From assembly GCF_030539355.1 (NCBI RefSeq), contig NZ_JAUNSF010000005.1:3011-67010 (forward strand): DNA of 64,000 bases, given 5' to 3'. The stretch is from Sutterella sp. (GTDB lineage: Bacteria > Pseudomonadota > Gammaproteobacteria > Burkholderiales > Burkholderiaceae_F). The position numbers were made by a program, and so were the translations under genes. The notes under the pieces are model-generated. The model made no database searches. It was not told where the DNA came from and worked only from the letters and a program-made list of their open reading frames with translations. Positions 5,507-48,530 of the stretch are shown in pieces. The first letter of the stretch is position 1; every line of letters starts with the position of its first letter.

Positions 5507-5872
<366 letters not shown>

Positions 5873-5938
5873 TTAGGGGGAAGCGTCGGCCTCCCGGTGT
5901 TGAAACCGGGACTGGCCGGATTTCATGCAACCCTTCTC

Positions 5939-5954
5939 AGCAGGGGCCGTGCCA
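5939..5954 (-). promoter_or_regulatory. sigma-54 (-24/-12) promoter for glnK-amtB
   Basis: Minus-strand TGGCACGGCCCCTGCT matches TGGCACG-N4-TTGCW at 11 of 12 defined positions, with correct GG/GC spacing. About 95 nt upstream of the glnK ATG. Confidence 0.6.
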
Positions 5955-6184
5955 AATGACCGCTTCAGGCACGCGATGACAGGGCTTCTTACCCTGAATG
6001 CGGGATGGCTCTAGGTGAAGAACCTGAGGTGGGTAGGGTGTTTCATTTACCTGACGCCGGGCCGCGCCGGGAGTGTGTCCCCGGTGGCCAGGCCGCCGTG
6101 TCGGGGCGGCCGAGCGGAATGGTGCGCGGCCGCGCACTTTTTCGGGGCACAGGTTTTGAATTAAATTGATTTACAGACAAAAAA

Positions 6185-6211
6185 GTGCATGCATCGGAAA
6201 CGGTGCATGCA
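6185..6211. promoter_or_regulatory. repeated GTGCATGCA elements (candidate NtrC-type enhancer site)
   Basis: GTGCATGCA at 6185-6193 and 6203-6211 (18-nt period), each containing the palindrome TGCATGCA. The span TGCATCGGAAACGGTGCA resembles TGCACC-N5-GGTGCA but is 1 nt longer. About 240 nt upstream of the sigma-54 promoter. Confidence 0.3.
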
Positions 6212-6291
6212 CTTTCCGGGCGCGCCCGGATACGGTGCGCGTTCCGCGGACGGTGAGGTCCCGGTGCGGCGACGGGGCGTCCGCGGCGCGC

Positions 6292-7248
6292 TCAGGACGC
6301 GGGCTCGGGTCTGCGCAGACCGAGCAGCTCCGCGGCCCTTGCCTTCCTCTCCTCCGCCTCCTTCATCCCGTTCTTGATCTCCTCCTCGTCAAGGAGCTCG
6401 AGGAGCCGCGCGACCGCGGGCGGCATGATGCGGTCCTTTTCCCAGGCGATGACGACGTCGGCCGAGAGCGGCGGCGTGAGCGGGAGCCACACGAAGCCGC
6501 TCTTCGGGTCCGGGTTGTAGATGCCCTCGAGCGCGAGCACGTCGCCCGCGCCCGCCTGAGCGAGAAGCCAGGCGTTGTAGATGAGGTTGAAGCGCGCGAC
6601 ATAGCGCACCTTGGGCGAGAGCTCGCCGAACCAGGCGGCGAACTCGTTGTTCGCGTCGGCCTGGATGGAGGTGAGGAGCGGTCGGCCGACGAGGTCCTTC
6701 GGCGAGACGGCGGAGAGTTTCCCGAGCGGCCCGTCCCTGCGCGTGATGACGCCCCAGCGGTTGGAGCGCTTCAGTTTCCGGCGGCTCCAGACCGTCGCGT
6801 CGATCTCGCCGATGAAGACGCCCAAGTCGGTGACGCCCGAGCGGAGCTCCGCGCGCACGGTCTCGGCGCTGCCGCTCACGATGCGCACGGTGACGCGCGG
6901 CGCCTCCCGCTGCAGGCGGGCGATCGCGCTCGCGAGCGGCGCGAGGCAGGGCGTCTCGCCCGCGGCGATGCGGATCTCGCCCGAGAGCGCGTCCTCGGCG
7001 GCGATCTCGGCCTTCGTGCGGTCGAAGAGCTCCGTGATCATCAGCGCCCGCTCGTAGAAGAGCCGCCCCTTCTCGGTGAGCGTCAGCCGCCGGTTGCTGC
7101 GCTCGAAGAGCTTGTGGCCGAGTTCCTCCTCGAGGTCCATGAACTGCCTCGAGAGCGTCGGCTGCGTGACGTGCACCCGGGCGCAGGCCCCGGAGATGCT
7201 TCCCGCCTTCACGGCCGCGATGAAGTAGCGCAGCACTCGTATGTCCAT
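6292..7248 (-). CDS. LysR family transcriptional regulator
   Basis: 318 aa. N-terminal HTH MDIRVLRYFIAAVKAGSISGACARVHVTQPTLSRQFMDLEEELG. Divergent from the MFS gene. Confidence 0.9.
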   Translation of the reverse strand: MDIRVLRYFIAAVKAGSISGACARVHVTQPTLSRQFMDLEEELGHKLFERSNRRLTLTEKGRLFYERALMITELFDRTKAEIAAEDALSGEIRIAAGETPCLAPLASAIARLQREAPRVTVRIVSGSAETVRAELRSGVTDLGVFIGEIDATVWSRRKLKRSNRWGVITRRDGPLGKLSAVSPKDLVGRPLLTSIQADANNEFAAWFGELSPKVRYVARFNLIYNAWLLAQAGAGDVLALEGIYNPDPKSGFVWLPLTPPLSADVVIAWEKDRIMPPAVARLLELLDEEEIKNGMKEAEERKARAAELLGLRRPEPAS

Positions 7249-7518
7249 GCCTCTCTCCTTGAATTTCTATGCCTTTCGAGCATATTGAGCGATGAAAATT
7301 CGGTATTTGACATGATTATACCCGGGAAATATAGTTTTTTCGTCAATATTCATCAGAGGCATAGTCGCCGGCCTCACCAGTGACAGACCCGTGCCGGCGG
7401 TTCTCTTCTTCTTCCGCCCGCCGCTCCGCGAATGCCTGCGCATTCCGCCTCCTCCCCTCAACGGGAGCGGCCGGTGCCGCGGGCGGCCTTTTTCCCAGTC
7501 TCCAGATTGAGAATCACC

Positions 7519-8727
7519 ATGTCGAATACCTCCCAGTCCGTGTCCGACCGCGCCGTGACGCCCGTGACGCTCTCGCTCTTCGCGGGCGTGACCGCCCTGA
7601 TCGCAAGCGAGTTCACGCCGGTGAGCCTCCTCACTCCCATCGCCGGCGCGCTCGGCATCTCGACCGGCACGGCCGGGCAGACCGTCACGGCCGTGGGCGC
7701 GGCGGCGTTCCTCACGAGCCTCCTGATCGCGCCGCTCTTTCCCCGCACCGACCGCAGGCTCCTGATGCTCGCCTTCACGCTGATCGCGGCGGTCTCGAAT
7801 GCCCTCATCGCGGTGACGGAGTCGGTGGCGCTCCACTTCGCCGCCCGCGCGGCGCTCGGCCTCTCCGTGGGCGGGTTCTGGTCGCTCTCGGTCGCCTACG
7901 TGCAGTCCGTGGTCTCAAGAAAGGCGCTCGCCGGCGCCTTCTCGGTGGTCTACGCCGGCGTCTCGGTCGCGACCCTGGTGGCGCTCCCCGGCGCCGCCGC
8001 GCTCTCGGACGCCTTCGGCTGGCGGGCGATCTTCGCCGCGGTCGCCGCGCTCACGTTCATCACCTTCCTCTGGCAGTGGCGGACGCTCCCTGAAGTCCGG
8101 CCAGCGCAGACCGCCGGGCTCGCCGCCTTCCGCGAGGTGCTCGCCGAACCGGCCGCCCGCTTCGGGCTTCTCGCGACTTTCACGGCCTACGCGGGCTACC
8201 ACACGGTCTTCACCTACGTGCGCGCGGTGCTCGAGACGAGCGCAGGGCTCACGGGAAGTGCGCTCTCGACGACGCTTCTCGTCTACGCGGTCATCAACGT
8301 GATCGGCACCTTCGTGGCGGGCCGCCTCTTCGCGAGCGCCTTCCGCGCGGCCTTCGCCGGCACGGCCGTTGCCGCGCTCGCGGCGCCCCTTCTGATGCTC
8401 CTCCTTGAGGGGAGCGTCGCGATCGTCGGGCCCGTCTTCCTCGCAGCCTTCGTCTTCGGCTTCATTCCGGTCGGCTGGTCGGTGTGGCTCGTGAGGACGC
8501 TCCCGCACCGCACGGAGATCTTCGGCGGACTCTCGGTCGCGGTGACGCAGCTCTCGATCGGCGCCGCGGCGAACGCGGGCGGGCTCCTCTTTGACAGCAC
8601 GGGCACGACGTCGCTCTTCATCCTCTCGGCCGTGCTCTGCGCGGGCACCCTCGCGCTGCTCCCCGGAACGATGAGGCCCGCGAAGGCTCCCGCCGGGCCG
8701 CACGAGATCCCCGTGACAGCCGCCTGA
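7519..8727 (+). CDS. MFS transporter
   Basis: ORF 7432..8727; likely start is Met 7519 (MSNTSQSV). About 12 hydrophobic helices; drug/sugar efflux-like MFS pattern. Confidence 0.85.
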   Translation: MSNTSQSVSDRAVTPVTLSLFAGVTALIASEFTPVSLLTPIAGALGISTGTAGQTVTAVGAAAFLTSLLIAPLFPRTDRRLLMLAFTLIAAVSNALIAVTESVALHFAARAALGLSVGGFWSLSVAYVQSVVSRKALAGAFSVVYAGVSVATLVALPGAAALSDAFGWRAIFAAVAALTFITFLWQWRTLPEVRPAQTAGLAAFREVLAEPAARFGLLATFTAYAGYHTVFTYVRAVLETSAGLTGSALSTTLLVYAVINVIGTFVAGRLFASAFRAAFAGTAVAALAAPLLMLLLEGSVAIVGPVFLAAFVFGFIPVGWSVWLVRTLPHRTEIFGGLSVAVTQLSIGAAANAGGLLFDSTGTTSLFILSAVLCAGTLALLPGTMRPAKAPAGPHEIPVTAA

Positions 8728-29284: not shown

Positions 29285-29325
29285 CAAAAGCGAAGGCTCC
29301 CGGGCGTGGCAGTCCGGGAGCCTTC
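29285..29325 (-). terminator. rho-independent terminator of VIT-vWA gene
   Basis: 12-bp stem GAAGGCTCCCGG (29292-29303) / CCGGGAGCCTTC (29314-29325). On the minus strand it is followed by GCTTTTGGG. Confidence 0.6.
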
Positions 29326-29355
29326 GGGGGCAGTGTCGCAGCAGGACAATCAGAT

Positions 29356-31797
29356 TCAGTCGGTCCAGTTCTCCACGATCCGTTCGAGCACCTCTCTCTG
29401 ATGCCCGTCGAGGAACTTCATGGCCTCCTCGACGTCGTCCCGGCCGAGTTCCTCGATGAGTTCGTCGAGAGCCGCCGAGGCCGCCGCGTTGAGGCGGCAG
29501 TTCCTGCCCTCGGGTTCGAGCGTGAGGATCCGCGTGAGCCAGATGAGGAAGACCGCGGCGCAGAGCTCCTCCTGCTCGTACTCGAGTTTCTCCTCGAAGA
29601 TGTCCGGATCCTGCTCCTCCAGGTAATCCTGGATCGGCGAGAAGCATTCATACGGGATGTCCCTCACGGCCGCCGCAGGATCGCCGGCCGCATTGATGTC
29701 GCTGACAATCTGTTCAAGAGATGTGATGACATGCTCTTCAGCGGCCGGCTCCTGGTCCGAGTCCGCACCTGAGGAATCGCCGTCCGCTCTGTTCATGTAC
29801 TCCCGGACTCTGTCGGCCAGACTCTTTCCGTTCACGATCCCAAGTCCCTCGGCTGTTGCGCGGTCCAGGGCAGCTCGAGTTCTTGCGGATTCCTTGGGAG
29901 TGGAGACACAGCGATAGTAGATCTTCACGGGGTCGGGCTCCCCGTCGATCGGGGCGTCCACCTCGAAGGATTCAGACGGAGCTTCGAGTTCCAGATCCGT
30001 ACCATCCAGTTCCAGATCCATATCGTCCGTATCGCATTTCATGATCTGGTTGAAGCAGATGACGTCATCGGCAACCATCTGCGGGACGCGGACGAGCTTC
30101 GGCATGCCTTCGGTCTTCTCGGCCTCGGCACGGACCTTCGCGAGGATGAAGCGGGTCTCGGGCGTGAGCAGTCCGTTCTCCGCGGCAAACGCGGCAAGAT
30201 CCTCTTCCTCGTCCGCATCCGTTTCCTCACCGGCACGGTTCCGGAGCGCCCGGTACTGCGCCGCGGCGACAAGCTTGCGGACGGCCTCGGCGAGGGCGCC
30301 CTCGGCTCGGATCACCTCGAGCGGCACGCGGGTCTTCGCCCCGTTCATGCCGTGGGAGAAGACGGGCGCCTTCCCGGGCACTTCGGAGAGCGTCAGCGAG
30401 ACAGAGACGGAGAGCCCCTCGGCGAAGCCGCGGGAGAACAGAAACCCGCCCGACTCGAAGCCGTGGAAGTCCACCATGGCGAAGGGGATCTTCTCGCTTC
30501 TCGCGGCGGCCATCGCACGCGCCACCACCGTGCGCATGTCCTCGGCCGGGTAGACGCGCTCGTAGTTGCCGTCAGTCTCGCGGGTAAGCTCGGCGAGCGC
30601 GCCGCTTCCTGAATGGCTGCCGACCATGATCACGTGTACGGAGCCTTTCTCCGCGATGCGCTCGGTGACTTCGTCGAGGCTGTCCCAGATCGCGCCGTCC
30701 GTGATGAGGAGGATGTCGGCCTTGGAGCGCGGGTTCTGGCGGCTCACGGCGTTGAGCGCCGCGGCCATCTCCGTGCCGCCGAGGTCGGCTTCCATGCCGA
30801 GGCAGGCCGGCAGGAAGTCGCGGCGCAGGAACGAGGCCGTCGCCGTCGTGAGCTTCGGGATCACGGCGTCAATGCTGCTCCCGAAGCGGGTAAGCGAGAC
30901 CTTGTCGTCGCCCCGGAGCTCGTCCGCGAGCGCGGCGAGGGCCTGGCGCACCTGCCGGATGGGAATGCCGTGCATCGAGCCCGAGCAGTCCGTGAGGATC
31001 TTGAGCGCGGCGGGATGAAGCGCCTTCTCCGTTTCGCCGGCCGTCACGACGGCGAGCGCGGCGCAGCCTTCCTCCCGGGGGCTGACCCAGCAGACGTTGA
31101 CGGGCGCGACGTCCTCGAAGCGGAGCGCAATGTCGCGGCTCGCCGCGGCGCGCTCGATCGTCACCTCGAGCGCCCCGTCCTTCGCCGCCACCGTCGCGGC
31201 GTGGGAGAGGGCGGTGAAGCGCCCCTTCGTGCAGGCGCCTTTAACGGTGAGCCTGAGCGACACCGGGATCTCGGCGCGGATGTCGGAGACGATCTGCTGA
31301 TGGGGCTTGAGCGTCCCCTGGCCGCCCGAGGCGCTGTAGCGCTCGCCCACGACGGTCGGGATCACCAGGCGCACGGTGCCGTGATTCAGGTCGAGCATCT
31401 CGGCCGTTGAGATCTCGAGCACCACCTCGTCGCCTTTCTTCAGGTTGCCGAGGTTCGCAGTGGCGATGCCGAGGTGCGGGTCGCTCACCTCGAGCATCAG
31501 CGGGAGGTCGCCCTCGGAGATGCTCTTCTCATACTGGGCCTCGGCCTTCGCCGCGGGGAGGATCCTCGCCTCGAGCTTCTCGCCATTGATGACTGCGGCA
31601 AAGTGCGTGACGACGCTCCCCGAGGAGAGCGGGAAGGAGTAGACGGCCTCCGCCGGGTCGTCGCCCGTGTGGCGGAAGGTCTGGCGGCAGGTGAGGGTGA
31701 GCAGCAGCCCGTTGAGTTCGCCGTCCCAGCGAATCCCCTCGATCGCCGTGGATTCTGGATTTAAGCCGGTGAGCCCGAACGTGTCAGTGTCGAACAT
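29356..31797 (-). CDS. cytoplasmic VIT domain + von Willebrand factor A (vWA) domain protein with long acidic C-terminal region
   Basis: ORF 29356..31833; ATG 31797 is preceded by AAGGAA. VIT-like N-terminus (..LTCRQTFRHTGDDPAEAVYSFPLSSGSVVTHFAAVINGEKLEARI..), vWA with MIDAS DxSxS (ILTDCSGSMHG). No signal peptide or TM helix. Asp/Glu-rich C-terminal third. Confidence 0.85.
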   Translation of the reverse strand: MFDTDTFGLTGLNPESTAIEGIRWDGELNGLLLTLTCRQTFRHTGDDPAEAVYSFPLSSGSVVTHFAAVINGEKLEARILPAAKAEAQYEKSISEGDLPLMLEVSDPHLGIATANLGNLKKGDEVVLEISTAEMLDLNHGTVRLVIPTVVGERYSASGGQGTLKPHQQIVSDIRAEIPVSLRLTVKGACTKGRFTALSHAATVAAKDGALEVTIERAAASRDIALRFEDVAPVNVCWVSPREEGCAALAVVTAGETEKALHPAALKILTDCSGSMHGIPIRQVRQALAALADELRGDDKVSLTRFGSSIDAVIPKLTTATASFLRRDFLPACLGMEADLGGTEMAAALNAVSRQNPRSKADILLITDGAIWDSLDEVTERIAEKGSVHVIMVGSHSGSGALAELTRETDGNYERVYPAEDMRTVVARAMAAARSEKIPFAMVDFHGFESGGFLFSRGFAEGLSVSVSLTLSEVPGKAPVFSHGMNGAKTRVPLEVIRAEGALAEAVRKLVAAAQYRALRNRAGEETDADEEEDLAAFAAENGLLTPETRFILAKVRAEAEKTEGMPKLVRVPQMVADDVICFNQIMKCDTDDMDLELDGTDLELEAPSESFEVDAPIDGEPDPVKIYYRCVSTPKESARTRAALDRATAEGLGIVNGKSLADRVREYMNRADGDSSGADSDQEPAAEEHVITSLEQIVSDINAAGDPAAAVRDIPYECFSPIQDYLEEQDPDIFEEKLEYEQEELCAAVFLIWLTRILTLEPEGRNCRLNAAASAALDELIEELGRDDVEEAMKFLDGHQREVLERIVENWTD

Positions 31798-31917
31798 GAA
31801 GTTTTCCTTGTGCCCGGGGATTTCCGCGGGCAAAAGCGTCCTTGAGGGAGCCGCAAGCCGGGGCGCGGTTCCCTTTCTTCAAAAGGCAGGAGTCACTGCG
31901 GACAGAGGTGCAGCGAA

Positions 31918-32319
31918 TCAGCCGTTGGTCTGCTTCGGTACGATTTCAATGATCTGCCTGATGAATTCACGCACGTCCTGTGCATTCATGCGAGCCTTCT
32001 CCGGATCGATTTCGAGTGATATTCCAGGCGCGATGTAGATGTGACTTCGTACGCTGACGGATCCCGGGCGCGGGGCCGGTTCTGAAGCGGTCTCCGGTGC
32101 AGTCATCATCGAACGGATGCTGTCGAGCGACCGGCCTTCGTCGGTGAGCCGTCGGATGCGGAGGAGCTGCTCGAGGTGCGACGAGGTGTAGTACGCGGCG
32201 CGCCTTTCACCGATGGGCCGGTCAGCGAGGCCGTTCTGGATGTAGAAGCGGATGGTTCTGACCGAGAGTCCGGTGAGGCGGCTCAGATCGTCGATGCTGT
32301 ATCGAATGATGTCGCTCAT
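31918..32319 (-). CDS. MerR family transcriptional regulator
   Basis: 133 aa. MSDIIRYSIDDLSRLTGLSVRTIRFYIQNGLADRPIGERRAAYYTSSHLEQLLRIRRLTDEGRSLDSIRSMM is a MerR HTH plus coiled-coil. GAAGGAAC RBS. Confidence 0.88.
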   Translation of the reverse strand: MSDIIRYSIDDLSRLTGLSVRTIRFYIQNGLADRPIGERRAAYYTSSHLEQLLRIRRLTDEGRSLDSIRSMMTAPETASEPAPRPGSVSVRSHIYIAPGISLEIDPEKARMNAQDVREFIRQIIEIVPKQTNG

Positions 32320-32339
32320 GAGCAGATGTTCCTTCTCTC

Positions 32340-32381
32340 TGACAGCATAATAACACTTCTTCTGTCAAAGTCAAGTGTCAA
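32340..32381 (-). promoter_or_regulatory. promoter/operator of the MerR - VIT-vWA operon
   Basis: Minus strand: TTGACT (32374-32369), 16 nt, TATTAT (32352-32347). Dyad TGACAG-N16-CTGTCA (32340-32367) straddles the -10. AT-rich island in a GC-rich genome. Confidence 0.5.
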
Positions 32382-32411
32382 AAAAAGAATTCACGTGCGC
32401 AGCGCCGGGGT

Positions 32412-33872
32412 TCAGCTGAACTCAAGCTCCTCGGAGGCGATCCTGCTCATGTTCTCAAGCGAGACGTGATCGACCTGCTCGACGAACCAGCCGTTCGCCT
32501 GGTACATCTGCATGAAGTCGGCGATCCGGTTCTGTCCGTCGCGGTTCCTCAGGGTCACGACGATCGAGAAGGGCAGGGCGTTCTCGCGAAGGGGCTTGAG
32601 CCGGTTGTTCGAGATCACGCCGAAGCCGTAGAGATCGCGGTAGTTCTTGAGCCCCTTGCTGATGATCTTTTTGATGACCTTGGTGTTGTTCCACTTGCCG
32701 TCGGAGCGGCGGGCGGTTTTCTCGGATATTTTTTCGCCGGCGTTCCCAAGGGACGAGGGTTGTTCAATTTCTCCGTTCTCCATGATTCTGCCGAACCGCA
32801 GGCCGAGCTCGGTGAGCGTGTAGTCGACGCCCTGTTCTCTCAGGCAGGGCGGGAAGTAGCAGAGCGTCGCCCGCATATTCCAGTTGAACCTGTTGAACTT
32901 GTCGCGCGGGACGGGAAGGTCATGTCTGAAGGTCCTGTAGTTTAGGACCTTTCCCTGAATGACAAAACGGATCTCGCTCGGTTCGCATGAAATGATGCTT
33001 CCGATGTGGGCGGGGACGACGCCGTGTCCGAGTTCCGCGGTGTTCCGGCTGTTCTCCGGGACCCAGCCCTCCGCGCTGTCGATGAGGAGCGCCTTGGCCG
33101 TTTCCCGGGAAAAACCGAGGACATGGATCATGTAGGCGATTTTTCGCGTGATCCAGGGGGCGGCGTAGGAAGTGCCGCTCACGAATCTGGCGCCCTGGCC
33201 GGAGCAGATCTGGACCTTGGTTTCCGGTCTCAGTCCGTCGCCGCCGAAGCAGGCGACGTCGGGCTTGGTGAAATAGTGAAGAACTGGCCCGGTTCTGGTG
33301 TAGGAGGCCGGGTTCCCCGCGAGATCGGTGGCGTTCACTGTGATCGCGTTGATGGAGTCCGCGGGCGCCCCGATTTTCATCGGCAGATCCGACCCTGTCG
33401 CGGGCTTGTTGGTGCCGGCGACGATGAAGATCACGTTGAATTCCGCCTGAAGCGCATCGAGCAGGGCTCCCTCCGGCGAGATGAAGAAGTCGCGGATTTC
33501 CTCCCTCGATCCGAGAGAGATGTTCCAGACACGGATGTCAGTGTTGGTGCGGACAATGTCGCGCACCATCTTCATGAGCGCGAAGGAACTCATCGGCGAG
33601 GCATAGCCGACGCCGAAGTGACGGACGCGGAACCGGCCGCAGCCGTCCTCGCGCCCGGGGTTCCCCGCGGGGCCGTCCACGATGATGGAGGTAACCTCGG
33701 TGCCGTGCTGATAGTCCTTCTCGGTGAGCGTAATGGCGGGGTCGACGAGTCGGTGATACTCCACCCAGTCCCTGAAATAGACGTTCGTGGAGAACTGGGT
33801 GTCGATGACGCCGACGACGGGTTCATTGCCCGGGGGCGGGATGCTGATCAGCCCGGGGGCGCCGCCGGGGGC
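32412..33872 (-). CDS. S8 family (subtilisin-like) serine peptidase, intracellular, 5' end undefined/possibly truncated
   Basis: Part of the 656-aa ORF 32412..34382. Triad motifs VVGVIDTQF (Asp), YQHGTEVTSII (His), VSGTSYAAPWI (Ser), and oxyanion NISLGS. No signal peptide. No ATG/GTG/TTG between the Asp motif and the pepT junction. The portion above about 33873 is antisense to pepT. Confidence 0.8.
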   Translation of the reverse strand, partial: APGGAPGLISIPPPGNEPVVGVIDTQFSTNVYFRDWVEYHRLVDPAITLTEKDYQHGTEVTSIIVDGPAGNPGREDGCGRFRVRHFGVGYASPMSSFALMKMVRDIVRTNTDIRVWNISLGSREEIRDFFISPEGALLDALQAEFNVIFIVAGTNKPATGSDLPMKIGAPADSINAITVNATDLAGNPASYTRTGPVLHYFTKPDVACFGGDGLRPETKVQICSGQGARFVSGTSYAAPWITRKIAYMIHVLGFSRETAKALLIDSAEGWVPENSRNTAELGHGVVPAHIGSIISCEPSEIRFVIQGKVLNYRTFRHDLPVPRDKFNRFNWNMRATLCYFPPCLREQGVDYTLTELGLRFGRIMENGEIEQPSSLGNAGEKISEKTARRSDGKWNNTKVIKKIISKGLKNYRDLYGFGVISNNRLKPLRENALPFSIVVTLRNRDGQNRIADFMQMYQANGWFVEQVDHVSLENMSRIASEELEFS

Positions 33873-33873
33873 G

Positions 33874-34943
33874 GCATCGTCTACGGCTGGATCGAGGCGA
33901 CGCCGGGCTGTGAGAAGGCGCCGGCGCTCGGCCTCATCGCCCACATGGATACCTCGCCCGAGGCGAGCGGCGATCCGGCCCGCTGGCGCGTGATTGATTA
34001 CCGGGGCGGCGACATTGTCTTGAACGAGGAGAAGGGCATCGTCCTCACGCTCGACCGGTTCCCGGAGGTCGCGAAGTACGCGGGCGAAAAGCTCGTCGTC
34101 ACCGACGGAACGACGCTCCTCGGCGCCGATGACAAGGCGGGCGTGGCGGCGCTCATGCAGGCGGCGAAGTACTTCGCCGACCATCCGGAGGTGCCGCACG
34201 CGAGGCTCTGCTTCTGCGTGACGCCCGATGAGGAGGTGGGTCTCGGCACCGCGGACTTCCGTCGCGAGGAGTTCGGGGCCGACTACGCCTACACGATCGA
34301 CGGGGGCGAGATCGGGGCGCTCGACACGGAGACCCTCAACGCCGCGCTCGTCACGGCGCATTTCGAGGGGCTCAACACCCATCCGGGGTCCGCGAAGAAC
34401 AAGATGGTGAACGCGATCCGCATGGCGACGGACTTCATCAGCCGCTTTCCCTCGGAGAGCGTTCCCGAGAAGACTTCAGGGTACGAGGGGTTCTTCCACC
34501 CGGTGAGCGTCACGGGCTCGGTCGGTGAGGCCGAGGTCCGGCTCCTCATCCGCGACCACGACAACGCGAAGTTCGAGGACCGGAAGGCCTACGCCCGCAA
34601 GGTGGGCGAGGAGATGAACCGCGCCTGGGGCGGCCGCGTGACGGTCACCGTCCGCGACCAGTACTACAACCTGAGCAACTACCTCGAGGACTTCCCCGTC
34701 GTCACCGCCAGCGCCCGCGAGGCCATGAAGCGCGCCGGTGTGGAGATCGTCGAGGAGCCGGTGAGGGGCGGCACGGACGGCTGCAGGATCTCGTCGATGG
34801 GGCTTCCGACGCCCAACTTCTTCGCGGGCGGCCTTTTCTTCCACTCGGTCTACGAGTGCCTGCCGGTGAAGTCGCTCGATAAGGCGTACGAGGTCGCGCG
34901 GACCCTCTGCGAAATGTCGGCCGAGATCAGGACGCTGCGCTGA
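33874..34943 (+). pseudogene. pepT: peptidase T (tripeptide aminopeptidase), 5'-truncated (about 50 N-terminal codons and start missing)
   Basis: C-terminal part of the 645-aa ORF. GIVYGWIEATPG..ALGLIAHMDTSPEASG..YRGGDIVL..TDGTTLLGADDKAGVAALM..GYEGFFH..RGGTDG aligns with E. coli PepT from about residue 55 to the end. Sequence upstream of 33874 is antisense S8, with no start or RBS. Confidence 0.8.
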
Positions 34944-44844: not shown

Positions 44845-45101
44845 GGGGCCGTCGGATTTCCGCAGCCGTTGGTATACATGGAAAGCAAATGACTCTCCCG
44901 GAAGACGGAAATCCCCCGGGGGAACACTTCCGGCATTAAAGCGGATTTTCGCGGGATGGGGCGGATTTGTCGGATAAACCTATAATCCGCCGCGACGAAC
45001 GTCCCCGGGAACCGAGCGATGAAGACCTGAAGCTCGGAGGTTCCCGAAAATCCAGAATAAAACCGCGGGGGCGGGCCGCAGCGAAACAAGGAGAATTCGC
45101 G

Positions 45102-48100
45102 ATGAAAGGTGAAACCCAGAGGTTCAGGAAGTCCGTGCTCCTCGCAAGCATGCTCGCGGCCTTCGCCGGCGCCGAGGCGGCGACGGTGACGGATCCCGTG
45201 ACGGGAAGCGGGGACGCGTATGGCTCCGCGGTGAAGACATGTGACGGTGCGGTCTGTACCTATGACTTCGGCGAAACCGTGACGATCTCGGCCGACCGGT
45301 CGGACTTCGAGACCGAAAAAGCTTTCTTCGGCGAATTCGCGAACGGTGTTGTCCGGTTCATAGGCACTTCAAAGAACAAGCTCACCGGGTCGGAGATCAC
45401 CATAGCCAATCCTGTGACCATTGAGGCGACGGATGTGGCTCAGGAAGGCGACTCGTCCTCTGACGAGTTGTTCGGCGTTTATTTCAACTACGCGAACGGC
45501 AATGCTCTGACTTTCAAGGATGCACTCACGATCAACGCAACCCTCGAGAGAGACAGTTCAAGGTCCCTGGCCACGGCCAACGGCATCAACGTCCGTGGTG
45601 CGAATGCCAAGGGGAACACGATCAATGCCGGAGACACGACGATCTCCGTGGATGTGAGCAGTCTGCTCTCAGGTGCGCAGGCCAGAGGTATCTATACCTG
45701 GACAGGAGATAACGGCAACAGCATGACTTTCGGCGATCTGGTGATCCAGGTCTCCGCGGATTCGGAAGGCGGTGTCGCGAATGCATACGGACTCTACGGC
45801 GGCGGCCTTTCACTGACGGCTTCCTCGCTTCGGATTGAGGCGAATTCGAACACCTCGGCAGCCAGGAACGCAACGGCGCATGGACTCTATGCGCTTAAGT
45901 ACTCAGATATTGCCGTCAACGGCACTCTCAGCATTTCCGCCGAGGCGGAGAGCGGCGGTTCAAACGCCACGACCACCGGTCTCTGGGTGTACGGAGGCTC
46001 GGTCTCCGTGACGGGCGGCTCGGCTTCGGACATCACAGCCGTCGCCTCAAGCAGCGCCGGTAAAGCGACTGCCCGGGGCATCTATGTCTACACATCAGGG
46101 AGCGAACTCAACCTCTCGTCGGAATCGAGCCAGATCGTGACCGTCCGCAGCGAGGCCGTGAACACAGGGGGTGTGGCCAAGTCCTATGGCGTGGATCTCT
46201 ACGGCGCAGGCTTCACCTTCGAGGGGAGCCTGAACATCACCTCGACAGCGGATTCCTCAACGGGAGACGGCACTGCCTATGGTCTCAATGCCACGACGCA
46301 GACGGCGGTCATCAGGACTGCGCTCAACATCAATGCAGAGGGCGACGAGGCCTATGCCGTTCATGCATACCGAGGGGTCACGCAGGGCAGCGTCACTGCG
46401 GGGTCGGTGACGCTCTCCGCTGTCGGAACCGCAGAAGCCTGCGGTGTCTGTCTTGAGGGCGGCGCTGCCGATTTTGCCTCCGGCAGCATCTCCGCCTCGT
46501 CCGCGGCGGCAGACGCGACGGTCACTGCGGTGTCGGTCTCGGAGACGGGCGCCTTCGAAATGGGCTCCGAGGGTTCCGCCGTCACGATCATTGCCTAGGG
46601 CGTCGCCGGGGACACGGTCTCCGCGCTGCAGGTCACTGAGGGCTCGGCTACCTTCGACACCGGTGCCTCGGGCTCCGTCTACCTGTCGGCCGGGCTCTCG
46701 GACGACGGCTCCGACTCAAGCACGGTGACCACTGTCAGCGCGGTCGGCTCAGGCTCTTCGGTGGATGTGAGCACAGGCGACCTCCTCATCTTTACCGAGG
46801 CCGGGGATGGCGCGGGCACGGCGGTCTCGGCCGCGGACGGCGCGGCCGTCACGCTCACTGCCTCGACCTCCCTCGTGATTGACGCCAGGGACAAGGCGGT
46901 GAGCGCCACGGGCGGTGCCTCCGTCGAAATTGACTCCAGCAGCTCCTTTATCTGGGGAGACGTGACCGCTTCGGAAGCCGGTTCCGTGAATGTCTCGACG
47001 GGCAGCAGCTCCAGTCTGATCGGCACGCTCTCAGCCGCCTCCGGCGCCGCGGTGAACGTTTCGCTCGGCGCCGCCTCGAATTACTTCGGCCGAACGGCGA
47101 CGGACGCGGCTTCAACGGTCACTCTCACGCTCGGGGAGGGCTCCGAGTGGTTTTGCCTCGGCGACTCCGAACTCACGAGCCTCACAGCCGTGAACTCGAC
47201 GATCGCGATCAACGCGGTCTCGGAGGAGGGCAGTTTCACCACGCTCACCGTCGGAACGCTCTCGGGGAGCGGCATCACCTTCGAGATGAGCGCCGATCTC
47301 GCGGCGGGCCAGAGCGACCGGCTCGTCATCACAAACTCTCCTGCGGAGGGTGTGTCCTATGCGGTTTCGCTCAATCTGATCGGCAGCGAGCCCGCGGGGA
47401 ACGTGAGCGGCATTTCGCTCATATCCGGCGCTGCGGACGCCGCTTTCTCACTCACGGACCAGGTCGCCTACAACGGCTCGGCCGACTCCTGGACGCTGGA
47501 GTACATGACCGAGGAGGAGGGCGTCGCCTCAGCCGGCTGGTATCTCACGCGCCAGTCCGGCACGAACGCCGCCGACACCCGCGAGACCGACACGGTGAAG
47601 AACTTCGGCACCTCGGCCGGGGCCTACTACGCCTGGCGGGCCGACATGCGCGAGATCTCGGCGCGCGTGGCGGAGATCCGCGGGGGCGTGGTGAGCGCCG
47701 CGGGTCTCTGGGTGAAGGGCATCCACGAGCGCGACCGCGTCTCGACCGCACCGGGCAAAGGTCTGCGCCAGAAGACCTTCGGTCTCCACATCGGCGCGGA
47801 CAGCATCGTCGCCGACCGCGGCAATGCCGCCTGGCTCGCGGGCGTGTCGCTCCGGTTCGCGCACTCGGACCAGGATCACCTCGCCTCGGCCGGGAACGGC
47901 ACGGGGAACCTCGACCAGTACTCGGCGAAGCTCTGGGCCTCGCGCGTCGGGCGGTCCGGCGCGTACACCACGGTCGTGCTCACGGGCGGCTTCTATGACG
48001 CCGACTTCGAGGGCGTCTCCAACGCCCGCAACCTCACCGTGAAGTCGGACTACACGACCTTCGGCCTCGGCGCGGCGCTCGAGGCGGGCCACCGCTTCGA

Positions 48101-48530
48101 GTTCGGCGACCGCTCGCCGTGGTTCGTCGAGCCCCAGCTCGCGCTCTCGTACCTCTGGGTGAAGGGGCGCGACTGGACGACGACGACCGGCATGCAGGTC
48201 TCGCAGGAGGATGCGGAGTTCCTCACGGGCCGCGCCGGGTTCGAACTTGGCCGCCGCTTCCCCGTGGGCCTCACGGAGAACGATCCGAGAAGCATGCAGT
48301 TCTCGCTGCGCGCGGGCGTGATCCACGAGTTCATGGGCGACCAGGACGTGACCCTGAACCGCTCCCACAGGTTCGCCTCCGAGATCGGCGGGACGACCGC
48401 CTACTACGGTCTCGGCCTGGACTTCGGTCTCTCCGAGGCCCAGAACCTCTCGGTGAGCCTCGAGCGCGAGACCGGCGCGCACTATCACCGGGATCTCAGC
48501 GCCCGGGTGAACTGGTCCTGGCGCTTCTGA
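45102..48530 (+). pseudogene. autotransporter (type Va) adhesin-like protein interrupted by a single in-frame TAG
   Basis: ORFs 44967..46598 and 46725..48530 are in the same frame and separated only by TAG at 46596-46598; the sequence between them reads on as GVAGDTVSALQVTEGSATF... AAGGAG RBS and signal peptide MKGETQRFRKSVLLASMLAAFAGAEA. Degenerate beta-helix rungs, then a C-terminal beta-barrel ending ..RVNWSWRF. Confidence 0.85.

Follow-up and report, generated by a model that had tools for sequence, protein, structure and literature searches.

What kind of system is formed when a small protein with a MerR-type DNA-binding domain is encoded next to a large protein that combines a VIT domain with a vWA domain, as happens in a stretch of DNA from Sutterella sp.? 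The stretch, referred to below as the window, comprises 64,000 nucleotides (NCBI RefSeq assembly GCF_030539355.1, contig NZ_JAUNSF010000005.1, positions 3,011 to 67,010) with ~67% GC, and the two genes form a compact unit on its minus strand (29286-32381). An earlier note, made by reading the letters without database searches, had proposed a self-contained operon of an undescribed kind. The analysis reported here indicates that the unit is almost certainly an intact member of a widespread, conserved and dedicated two-gene operon. The pair fits no characterised kind of system, though its components belong to known superfamilies. The explanation that best accounts for the observations as a whole is an autoregulated regulator-effector pair, probably acting on the divisome, for which the chances are about evenly balanced.

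The gene pair and its relatives

The case for a dedicated operon comes from comparison of loci. Relatives of the large protein were collected by scanning one genome per species, which yielded at least 363, and 80 of their loci were examined. These belong mostly to Burkholderiales (Limnohabitans, Polynucleobacter, Rhodoferax, Oxalobacter and Sutterellaceae), with further members in Thiobacillus, some Gammaproteobacteria, Desulfovibrio and Mailhella. At ~73 of the 79 assessable loci, the gene immediately upstream, in the same orientation, encodes a full-length relative of the small protein (E-values 1e-20 to 1e-42); one of the seven non-matching loci is cut by a contig end, and the other six are truly without the regulator. 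All-versus-all clustering of every open reading frame (ORF) in the flanks of the 80 loci showed just these two genes to be conserved, and none of the 243 Pfam families detected in the 246 nearest-neighbour ORFs occurs in more than four of them. Synteny of a MerR gene with VIT-vWA homologues, on which the earlier note had staked its proposal, is thus the rule. The conserved upstream protease or ATPase that it had also asked about appears neither among the flank clusters nor in Pfam and PADLOC scans of the 246 neighbours, which rule out a conserved third gene of the protease, ATPase or MoxR kind.

The two genes overlap at 36 of 71 loci, with a modal distance of -4 nt and a median gap of -1 nt. 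The large protein has many relatives of 700-850 residues that are devoid of a signal peptide; the best match in a word-indexed search is 38% identical, while an exhaustive HMMER scan found a best relative at 47% identity and 739 representatives at E <= 1e-30. Viewed from the regulator side, a VIT-vWA gene follows in two of the three lineages examined among the 120 best matches listed. The regulator family comprises at least 4,684 clusters, which bear generic names only, and in RefSeq the two products go by the names 'MerR family transcriptional regulator' and 'VIT and VWA domain-containing protein'. Beyond the domains, no functional family emerged when both proteins were scanned with PADLOC, NCBIfam and Pfam, and no annotated or published function for the pair was found in the sources searched. 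That no characterised system has this make-up, as the earlier note surmised, agrees with PADLOC, NCBIfam, Pfam, the RefSeq product names and the literature searched.

Outside the window, the pair is found in a riboflavin/nusB cluster, at the end of a ribosomal-protein/rpoA operon, in regions rich in insertion sequence (IS) elements and at an IS-flanked site on a Massilia plasmid. A WYL/WCX regulator, a NERD-UvrD-type helicase and a SRAP (YedK-like) gene recur beside it in several lineages (loci L086-L088, 4293-7764), a neighbourhood that may reflect an association with DNA damage or defence. Two of the six regulator-less loci have a WYL-type regulator upstream instead (L018, 4340-5290; L024, 3751-4725). 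One orphan regulator, P0172 (65 contigs; L089-L091, at 3321-3737 in L089), lies amid genes for an AbiEii toxin, IS transposases and the catabolism of aromatics, so the regulator can be retained or put to another use where its VIT-vWA partner is missing. Carriage by phages or plasmids was considered and rejected, with no occurrence in 50,697 phage genomes, one in 2.9 million viral contigs and two on large non-mobilisable plasmids. The sole contig from a viral collection (L093, from IMG/VR, 5577-8238) carries a MerR-like ORF at 5577-5990 and a VIT-vWA ORF at 5722-8238; it may be a prophage or a mis-binned piece of chromosome.

In the window, the unit is organised as follows.

32340..32381, minus strand: promoter and operator, with the -35 element TTGACT at 32369-32374 and the -10 element TATTAT at 32347-32352, TG standing just before the latter
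32375-32379, minus strand: operator half-site GACAC
32362-32366, minus strand: operator half-site GACAG
32353-32356, minus strand: inverted operator half-site GTGT
32341-32345, minus strand: window-specific half-site CTGTC
31918..32319, minus strand: gene of the small MerR-like regulator (133 residues), with its own Shine-Dalgarno sequence
31798..31917, minus strand: intergenic spacer of 120 nt, carrying the AGGA Shine-Dalgarno sequence of the large gene
29356..31797, minus strand: large VIT-vWA gene, 813 residues plus stop
29286..29326, minus strand: intrinsic-terminator-like hairpin with a 13-bp GC-rich stem (29291-29326), followed by UUUU

The promoter, TTGACT-16 nt-TATTAT (32374-32347), is the sole sigma-70-like site of the 3.3-kb unit; it has 10 of 12 matches and an extended -10 TG, and 0.4 such sites would be expected by chance in a stretch of this length. 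The large ORF is open from a TTG (29356-31833, minus strand). A Shine-Dalgarno AGGA stands 8 nt ahead of a later start, the ATG at 31797, and the 813-residue product read from there is also that of the public gene call. The intergenic gap is unusually long for the family, given the median of -1 nt, and its RNA folding is not significant (z = -1.26). The terminator hairpin folds strongly (z = -5.05; none of 200 shuffles folds equally well), and a simple terminator scanner gave no call because the U-tract is just UUUU. No Rfam family matched in the window. A self-contained minus-strand unit with its own promoter, a 133-residue protein and, ~120 nt downstream, a protein of ~813 residues had all been read correctly from the letters. 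The claimed hairpin/T-run terminator stands as regards the hairpin and is weaker as regards the T-run.

The small protein and its operator

The small protein had been described as a MerR-family protein whose short C-terminal part has no metal-binding Cys. The DNA-binding half of this description is well supported. Pfam MerR_1 matches residues 7-73 only (E 3.6e-18), and in Foldseek searches the ~73 N-terminal residues superpose with a root-mean-square deviation (rmsd) of ~2 A on CadR, PbrR, CueR, HiNmlR, GlnR and TnrA, whereas full-length superpositions on MerR-family structures give an rmsd of ~9 A. An alignment of 59 orthologues divides the protein into a MerR-type winged helix-turn-helix (HTH; residues 1-75), a Pro-rich linker and a conserved module of ~50 residues with the consensus PGSVEVRSH..A.G.EL.I.PEEA..SPEQ.R, which forms a beta-hairpin and a helix (residues 86-126). 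The AlphaFold2 model, with a predicted local distance difference test (pLDDT) score of 78, has a disordered linker (residues 74-91), then two short strands and a 14-residue helix. The long alpha-5 coiled-coil dimerisation helix is present neither in this model nor in the 59 orthologues, and a Foldseek search of the PDB returned no structural counterpart of the C-terminal module. The window regulator has no Cys at all, as the earlier reading implied for its C-terminal part, and no Cys/His ligand site that could bind an effector. NCBIfam equivalog models reach <=32 bits against cut-offs of >=105 and cover the HTH only, the best being CadR/PbrR, CueR and HspR; among PADLOC models just mad1 matches, again over the HTH (residues 7-54, E 6.6e-8).

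An expectation-maximisation motif search in 61 regions upstream of the regulator gene gave the operator consensus GACAcTTGaTT-ttGACAGT-tgTag-TGTtATAAT, which scores above the 99th percentile of shuffled controls in 55 of the 61 regions. One ACA(G/C)T half-site stands against a -35-like TTGaTT, and an ACAG-N5-(C/G)TGT palindrome lies within the 16-nt spacer and abuts the -10 element. When the 38-nt matrix of the family was run over both strands of the window (128 kb), its top score fell at 32344-32381 (24.7, z = 6.6), and the ACAG-N5-[CG]TGT core occurs once in the 64 kb. In the family comparison the window promoter/operator scores 18.3, inside the family range. The dyad TGACAG-N16-CTGTCA that had been pointed out by eye is present. 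As an operator it is half right: the left arm forms part of the site conserved in the family, and the right arm is peculiar to the window and not conserved elsewhere. At ~20 of the 61 loci the -10 hexamer ends ~6 nt before the regulator ATG (L005, L006, L007, L020, L036, L040, L061, L062, L077 and others), making the regulator mRNA probably leaderless there; the window regulator, unlike these, has a leader with a Shine-Dalgarno sequence.

MerR-type activation needs a promoter spacer of 19-20 bp. In both the window and the family consensus the spacer is 16 nt, and the small protein thus departs from canonical MerR regulators in three of their four defining features: it keeps the winged HTH and is without the coiled coil, the ligand site and the long spacer. 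Activation by DNA untwisting, as in MerR, is accordingly unlikely, and a near-optimal 16-nt spacer with sites over the -35 element and within the spacer looks like the operator of an autorepressor. The small protein probably autoregulates the operon at the mapped operator. Were this so, the family would define a MerR-HTH subfamily, at least 4,684 clusters in size, in which no coiled coil is needed for function, widening the repertoire of MerR-type proteins.

The large protein and the FtsZ-tail peptide

The large protein consists of a confidently modelled core followed by a disordered tail and a small helical bundle. Its vWA domain carries a metal ion-dependent adhesion site (MIDAS).

31408..31737, minus strand: VIT domain, residues 21-130 (Pfam PF08487, E 1.8e-18; pLDDT >90)
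30532..31005, minus strand: vWA domain, residues 265-422 (Pfam VWA_3, E 2.6e-12; also VWA and VWA_2)
30976-30990, minus strand: MIDAS motif DCSGS, within ILTDCSGSMHG
30058..30495, minus strand: post-vWA beta/alpha region, residues 435-580, common to PARP4 and ITIH and ending in the conserved EKTEGMPKLVRVPQM
29725..30054, minus strand: disordered hyper-acidic linker, residues 582-691 (pLDDT <50)
29359..29724, minus strand: C-terminal helical bundle, residues 692-813 (AlphaFold2 pLDDT 70-88)

In the AlphaFold2 model, built with a 117-sequence alignment, residues 12-580 are confident (mostly >90 pLDDT), residues 582-657 and 674-691 are disordered, and the bundle spans residues 692-812. The MIDAS residues D270, S272, S274, T342 and D367 are invariant in the 117 family sequences; in the post-vWA motif, the VPQM of which lies at 30076-30087, R556 and M574 are nearly so. 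AlphaFold models of ITIH-type VIT+vWA proteins, bacterial ones and human VWA5A among them, are reported to form a deep 6_3 knot (preprint 10.1101/2023.06.16.545156). The window protein is cytoplasmic: the maximum 19-residue hydropathy is 1.35, the N-terminus is polar, and neither the window protein nor the ten homologues inspected have a signal peptide, transmembrane helix or sorting signal. Beyond the core, residues 575-813 (239 residues) contain 25% Asp and Glu and have a net charge of -40; across 146 family tails the median is 12% and none is more acidic. No relative sharing the acidic tail was found among 1.84 billion representatives, similarity always stopping at about residues 576-600. 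The bundle helices (...LLxWL..., LSRQAERxLR and ...(D/E)W) are family-wide though weakly conserved, and the window copy aligns with them; the bundle has no significant match in Pfam or the PDB, the MINT domain of PARP4 included. The intact MIDAS, the absence of export or membrane signals, and the extremely acidic C-terminal region ending in a helical module had all been read correctly from the sequence. The accompanying view that VIT-vWA architecture is mainly that of secreted or anchored proteins does not carry over, as the closest solved relative is the cytoplasmic PARP4.

The tails of many relatives contain a copy of the FtsZ C-terminal peptide. The motif was first noticed as ...DDYEIPAFLRKQAD and similar strings, another tail example being SGGMDDFEIPAFLRKQAEDM, and 40-50% of family members carry a version of ...DDFEIPAFLRKQAD in the disordered tail. 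Of 196 full-length members, 80 have the pattern [IVLFA]P.[FYW][LIMF][RK] in the tail and just 1 has it in the first 520 residues, the longer segment; exact PAFLR occurs in 62 tails and no heads. A search of 177,635 distinct PDB sequences with a 20-column profile derived from 47 family motifs gave seven matches, all of them FtsZ and all at the extreme C-terminus, including those of Pseudomonas aeruginosa (DDLDYLDIPAFLRRQAD, E 5e-6) and Escherichia coli (E 1.6e-5). With the same profile, 102 of 197 members score above the reversed-sequence control. The motif is present in 55 of 129 independent representatives (<=50% identical), 50 of them strong and 5 weak; most of the strong motifs (42 of 50) are found in the linker, 80-250 residues before the end of the protein, and six occupy the very C-terminus, where FtsZ has its copy. 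Scores above 10 bits are reached by 32 VIT-vWA ORFs and by one other ORF out of the 9,083 in the loci. This single exception (L034, 2597-3460, plus strand; PDYIPAFLRRAGSDD, 14.3 bits) is a Cys-rich/TPR-like ORF directly downstream of the VIT-vWA gene in a metagenome-assembled genome of Oxalobacteraceae. The motif is common in Comamonadaceae, Polynucleobacter and Rhodoferax and occurs in one Oxalobacter.

The FtsZ tail binds FtsA or ZipA with a Kd of 20-50 uM. In E. coli, the tail DYLDIPAFLRKQAD (DYLDIPAFLRKQAD383) binds ZipA, FtsA, MinC, ZapD, ClpX and SlmA, with I374 and L378 being critical (PMC4117426). There is a slightly better than even chance that the family acts through such FtsZ-tail receptors; that the window copy itself does so is rather doubtful. 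Where its closest relative P0254 has RFESLPRILRTP, the window protein has SFEVDAPIDGEPD (residues 610-622, nt 29932-29970), possibly a decayed relic of the FtsZ-tail-like motif. A second short motif follows VPQM in several divergent members, as KIYYRCVS in the window (residues 627-634, ~29896-29919) and as PMYCVES, TRYLRCAS, IDYFRCQ, ACYLRHP and TRYLEACH in the tails of P0254, P0025, P0259, P0097 and P0003. Many gut-clade tails are rich in Cys.

These observations can be assembled into a mechanism. The small protein would bind ACAGT-type half-sites that flank the -35 element and fill the 16-nt spacer of its own promoter, and would thereby autoregulate the operon, most likely as a repressor. 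The two products would be made together and form a complex via the C-terminal module of the regulator, as the frequent 4-nt gene overlap and the partner-type module suggest; such a complex would resemble the control of TnrA/GlnR by a partner protein, or the pairing of antitoxin and toxin. The large protein would serve as an adaptor, its MIDAS face holding a protein ligand while the flexible tail docks on other proteins. Given the FtsZ-peptide copy in about half of the family, the effector would be expected to bind FtsA, ZipA, MinC, SlmA, ZapD and ClpX, and would then be located at the divisome or, with greater likelihood, disturb it through competition with FtsZ. All conserved structural features are kept in the window copy, but not the FtsZ-like peptide, and the tail is unusually acidic. 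Its docking target may differ or be gone, and it may have undergone partial loss of function.

Several findings weigh against a pair that acts on division. About half of the family is without the motif, so that a link to division may not be the core function; every Desulfovibrio and Mailhella member lacks it, as do most of those in Sutterellaceae, and the tail of the window protein does not match the profile, whose best score (-2.9) falls inside the vWA domain. Where the peptide is present, it could leave division untouched and instead mark the protein for degradation by ClpXP or direct its localisation. A protein of 800 residues, perhaps with a knotted fold, is an elaborate vehicle for a decoy peptide, and the role of the invariant MIDAS is left unexplained. 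As to the pairing itself, six loci have no regulator gene, at least one regulator lineage, the third examined, is an orphan without a VIT-vWA gene (in an IS/AbiEii/catabolic context), and the window genes stand 120 nt apart rather than overlapping.

A bolder form of the proposal is that the pair represents a new class of system, in which the effector mimics the FtsZ peptide to engage FtsA/ZipA, either as a toxin-antitoxin-like division inhibitor or as a decoy or guard for attackers of the FtsZ tail, that the family is perhaps the bacterial source of the VIT-vWA module of PARP4, and that the window copy has diverged, its peptide exchanged or lost. This is put forward tentatively, being possible but distinctly short of probable. 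Should the mechanism assembled above be right, hundreds of species (chiefly Burkholderiales, with gut Sutterellaceae, Oxalobacter and Desulfovibrionaceae besides) would carry an unrecognised autoregulated module that plugs into the hub peptide of division, and a non-FtsZ family copying the FtsZ tail would constitute a new way to regulate, inhibit or monitor division. The FtsZ-FtsA/ZipA interface is an antibiotic target, of which the family would offer a natural, ready-made competitor, and the pair would provide a tractable bacterial model for the VIT-vWA module of the vault protein PARP4. The value of the window copy is more modest, as the diverged, motif-less copy that led to the family.

Neighbourhood, rival explanations and known systems

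Two genes next to the unit bear on its history.

32412..33845, minus strand: remnant of a gene for an IetS-type S8 anti-phage protease, outside the unit, without the N-terminal third and without an IetA partner
33873..34943, plus strand: 5'-truncated pepT (NCBIfam PepT profile positions 57-407 of 409)

The S8 ORF matches PADLOC IetS (E 3e-61) over profile positions 251-742, and NCBIfam IteS with 159.7 bits against a cut-off of 900 (positions 249-742 of 747). Profile positions 1-248 are missing and no IetA ATPase gene is present, and the adjoining orphan S8 protease of the earlier note is thus a decayed IetS remnant unrelated to the pair. In the ORF list it appears as a 656-residue 'S8 ORF', the first ~180 residues of which are antisense read-through of pepT. 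The truncation of pepT, noted before, is confirmed, the first ~56 codons being absent where it abuts the truncated S8 gene. The two truncations meet within ~30 bp (33845-33873), at a deletion scar where ietA has gone together with the 5' portion of ietS and the beginning of pepT, which places the pair in a small, partly decayed accessory patch. The GC content at third codon positions (GC3) averages 0.904 +/- 0.043 over 47 window genes and is 0.74 in the MerR gene (the lowest in the window), 0.80 in the S8 ORF and 0.86 in the VIT-vWA gene; the lower-GC patch proposed by eye therefore holds for the first two and weakly, at ~1 standard deviation, for the third. On its other side the unit adjoins a MarR-RND efflux operon. 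A second low-GC dip of the window, at 45-46 kb, is explained by the passenger region of an autotransporter-like gene, apparently split into two ORFs (44967-46598 and 46725-48530, plus strand), with a signal peptide, Ser/Thr/Ala-rich passenger repeats and a C-terminal beta-barrel ending ...WSWRF.

This setting raises two alternatives to a pair that acts on the divisome. The unit could be an anti-phage or anti-invader module, in line with the stress- or invader-triggered role surmised in the earlier note, in which vWA/MIDAS would sense an invader protein, the FtsZ-tail copy would serve as bait for phage factors directed at the FtsZ tail or the effector would arrest division (abortive infection), and the small protein would repress until triggered. 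The decayed IetS-type gene and the low-GC3 patch fit such a role, as do, across the family, the hypervariable flanks, the patchy taxonomic distribution, the toxin-antitoxin-like gene layout and the IS elements, AbiEii and Imm74 of some contexts. Moreover, ~17-19 of the 246 nearest neighbours (~7%) are strong PADLOC matches (ZorA/ZorD, type I and III restriction-modification, DpdE, DUF499, PDC-S01/M05, WYL, NERD-UvrD), a share that is modestly elevated but not decisive, and the defence context as a whole is weak to moderate. Of the nearest neighbours, >90% are metabolic or housekeeping genes. Several loci lie inside core operons (rib/nusB; just after rpoA/rplQ), and the conservation of flanks within genera, e.g. 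Limnohabitans, suggests stable vertical inheritance. The VIT-vWA protein matches none of the PADLOC families and the regulator just mad1 through its HTH; no nuclease, NTPase, protease or other obvious effector domain is present; and the module is missing from the phage genomes and nearly so from viral contigs and plasmids. A defence role is therefore considered unlikely. It is also rather improbable that the copy in the window has no current function and is decaying as the passenger of an accessory island already deleted in part, even were the family to function elsewhere. The deletion scar lies just 1.5 kb away, truncating ietS and pepT, the FtsZ-like motif is lost where the closest relative P0254 keeps a variant, the spacer is atypical, the tail is without a sequence relative among the 1.84 billion representatives, and the regulator gene has the lowest GC3. 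Yet both ORFs are full length with all family-invariant MIDAS and HTH residues intact, the promoter/operator score is within the family range, Shine-Dalgarno sequences and terminator are in place, the bundle still aligns with the family, and the GC3 of the large gene (0.86) is largely host-adapted.

The domains themselves suggest two further readings. In a classical MerR stress switch, sensing of a ligand (metal, oxidant or drug) would activate a protective or chaperone-like vWA protein of the CoxE, ViaA or BatA type, with no link to division. From several systems, vWA domains have been described as Mg2+-dependent peptide-binding chaperones (PMC9503650), the large protein has a weak VWA_CoxE match in Pfam, the HTH is closest to CadR/PbrR, CueR and HspR, and the unit adjoins the MarR-RND operon. 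These likenesses are outweighed by the sub-threshold NCBIfam scores confined to the HTH, the missing coiled coil and Cys/His site, a C-terminal module without counterpart in MerR structures and a spacer of 16 rather than 19-20 nt; neither a MoxR/RavA-type ATPase nor any other client gene recurs in the neighbourhood, and the FtsZ-tail copy would be left unexplained. Such a switch is improbable. A secreted or surface-anchored adhesin of the sortase/exosortase-target type is scarcely credible. Its attraction lies in the best NCBIfam match, TIGR03788 'marine proteobacterial sortase target protein' (E 7.5e-33), and in the annotation of more distant plasmid homologues as sortase targets. However, TIGR03788 scores 113.8 bits against a cut-off of 551.65 and over the VIT-vWA core only, and TIGR04477 15.8 against 250; signals for secretion, membrane insertion or sorting are missing in the window protein and the ten homologues, the protein ends in a soluble helical bundle, sortase and exosortase genes are missing from the vicinity, and the family is closer to the cytoplasmic PARP4. 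Score, hydropathy and context thus effectively refute this reading, and an autoregulated pair that probably acts on the divisome remains preferred.

How, then, does the pair compare with systems already described? The small protein shares with MerR, CueR, CadR and BmrR the winged HTH signature RTxRxYxxxGL and the wing, but not the alpha-5 coiled coil, the effector site or the spacer length, which is 16 nt here. Closer in architecture are TnrA and GlnR of Bacillus, short MerR-type winged-HTH proteins without a long coiled coil that are among the best PDB matches in both sequence and structure. They are controlled by a partner, glutamine synthetase, which contacts their C-terminal part. The analogy is one of architecture only: the C-terminal module here is unrelated, the partner is encoded in the same operon, and the operator is ACAG-N5-CTGT plus a half-site at -35, as opposed to TGTNA-N7-TNACA. 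With type II toxin-antitoxin systems the family has in common a small DNA-binding gene in first position, a frequent 4-nt overlap, an operator over the promoter, variable flanks and a patchy distribution. The overlap is a property of the family (36 of 71 pairs), the window genes standing 120 nt apart. Unlike in toxin-antitoxin systems, the second gene encodes a multidomain protein of 700-850 residues with no known toxin fold, and the module is rarely found on plasmids. The vWA-MoxR and ternary vWA conflict systems likewise place a cytoplasmic vWA/MIDAS protein in a compact accessory operon. No MoxR/RavA AAA+ or VMAP partner is conserved in the 80 loci, where AAA-type domains occur in <=3 of 125 flank ORFs and are not of the MoxR kind, and both VIT and MerR go unmentioned in the account of vWA conflict systems by Kaur et al. 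(2020; PMC7159879).

The sequence D(D/E)x(E/D)IPAFLR(K/R)Q(A/S)D, present in about half of the family, is nearly identical to the FtsZ C-terminal peptide and includes the critical I and L; unlike in FtsZ, the motif stands on a non-tubulin VIT-vWA protein and is usually internal to the linker. To our knowledge, the FtsZ tail has been described only as a feature of FtsZ itself, and neither a non-FtsZ family using this peptide nor a MerR plus VIT-vWA system is described in the literature searched. For the large protein, the Foldseek top match is ITIH1 (6fpy, E 2e-27), and the overall VIT-vWA fold and the MIDAS are those of ITIH1 and ITIH4. Unlike the window protein, the ITIHs are secreted and processed, with covalent bonds to bikunin and hyaluronan. 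An acidic tail and a helical bundle are both missing from them, and their sequence similarity is weaker than that of PARP4. The family profile (positions 4-606) matches residues 608-1240 of human PARP4 with an E-value of 5e-71, compared with 2e-43 for ITIH4 and 2e-30 for ITIH1, and the window protein alone (residues 16-586) finds only PARP4 in the PDB (620-1209, E 1.3e-11). Both PARP4 and the window protein are cytoplasmic, have a VIT domain, a vWA domain with a DCSxSM MIDAS and, as a weak echo after it, EK..P.l.vpqM, and, beyond these parts, run on through a lengthy disordered stretch to a helical docking domain at the C-terminus. Unlike PARP4, the window protein is bacterial, is coupled to a dedicated DNA-binding protein, has no vault partner and no BRCT or PARP catalytic domains, and ends in a bundle without detectable similarity to the MINT domain. 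The VIT-vWA part of PARP4 is unresolved in deposited coordinates and of unknown function (PMC12280208), so that the comparison offers no mechanism. Since the family is markedly closer in sequence to PARP4 than to the secreted ITIHs, it nevertheless suggests an evolutionary link between these bacterial proteins and a eukaryotic vault component.

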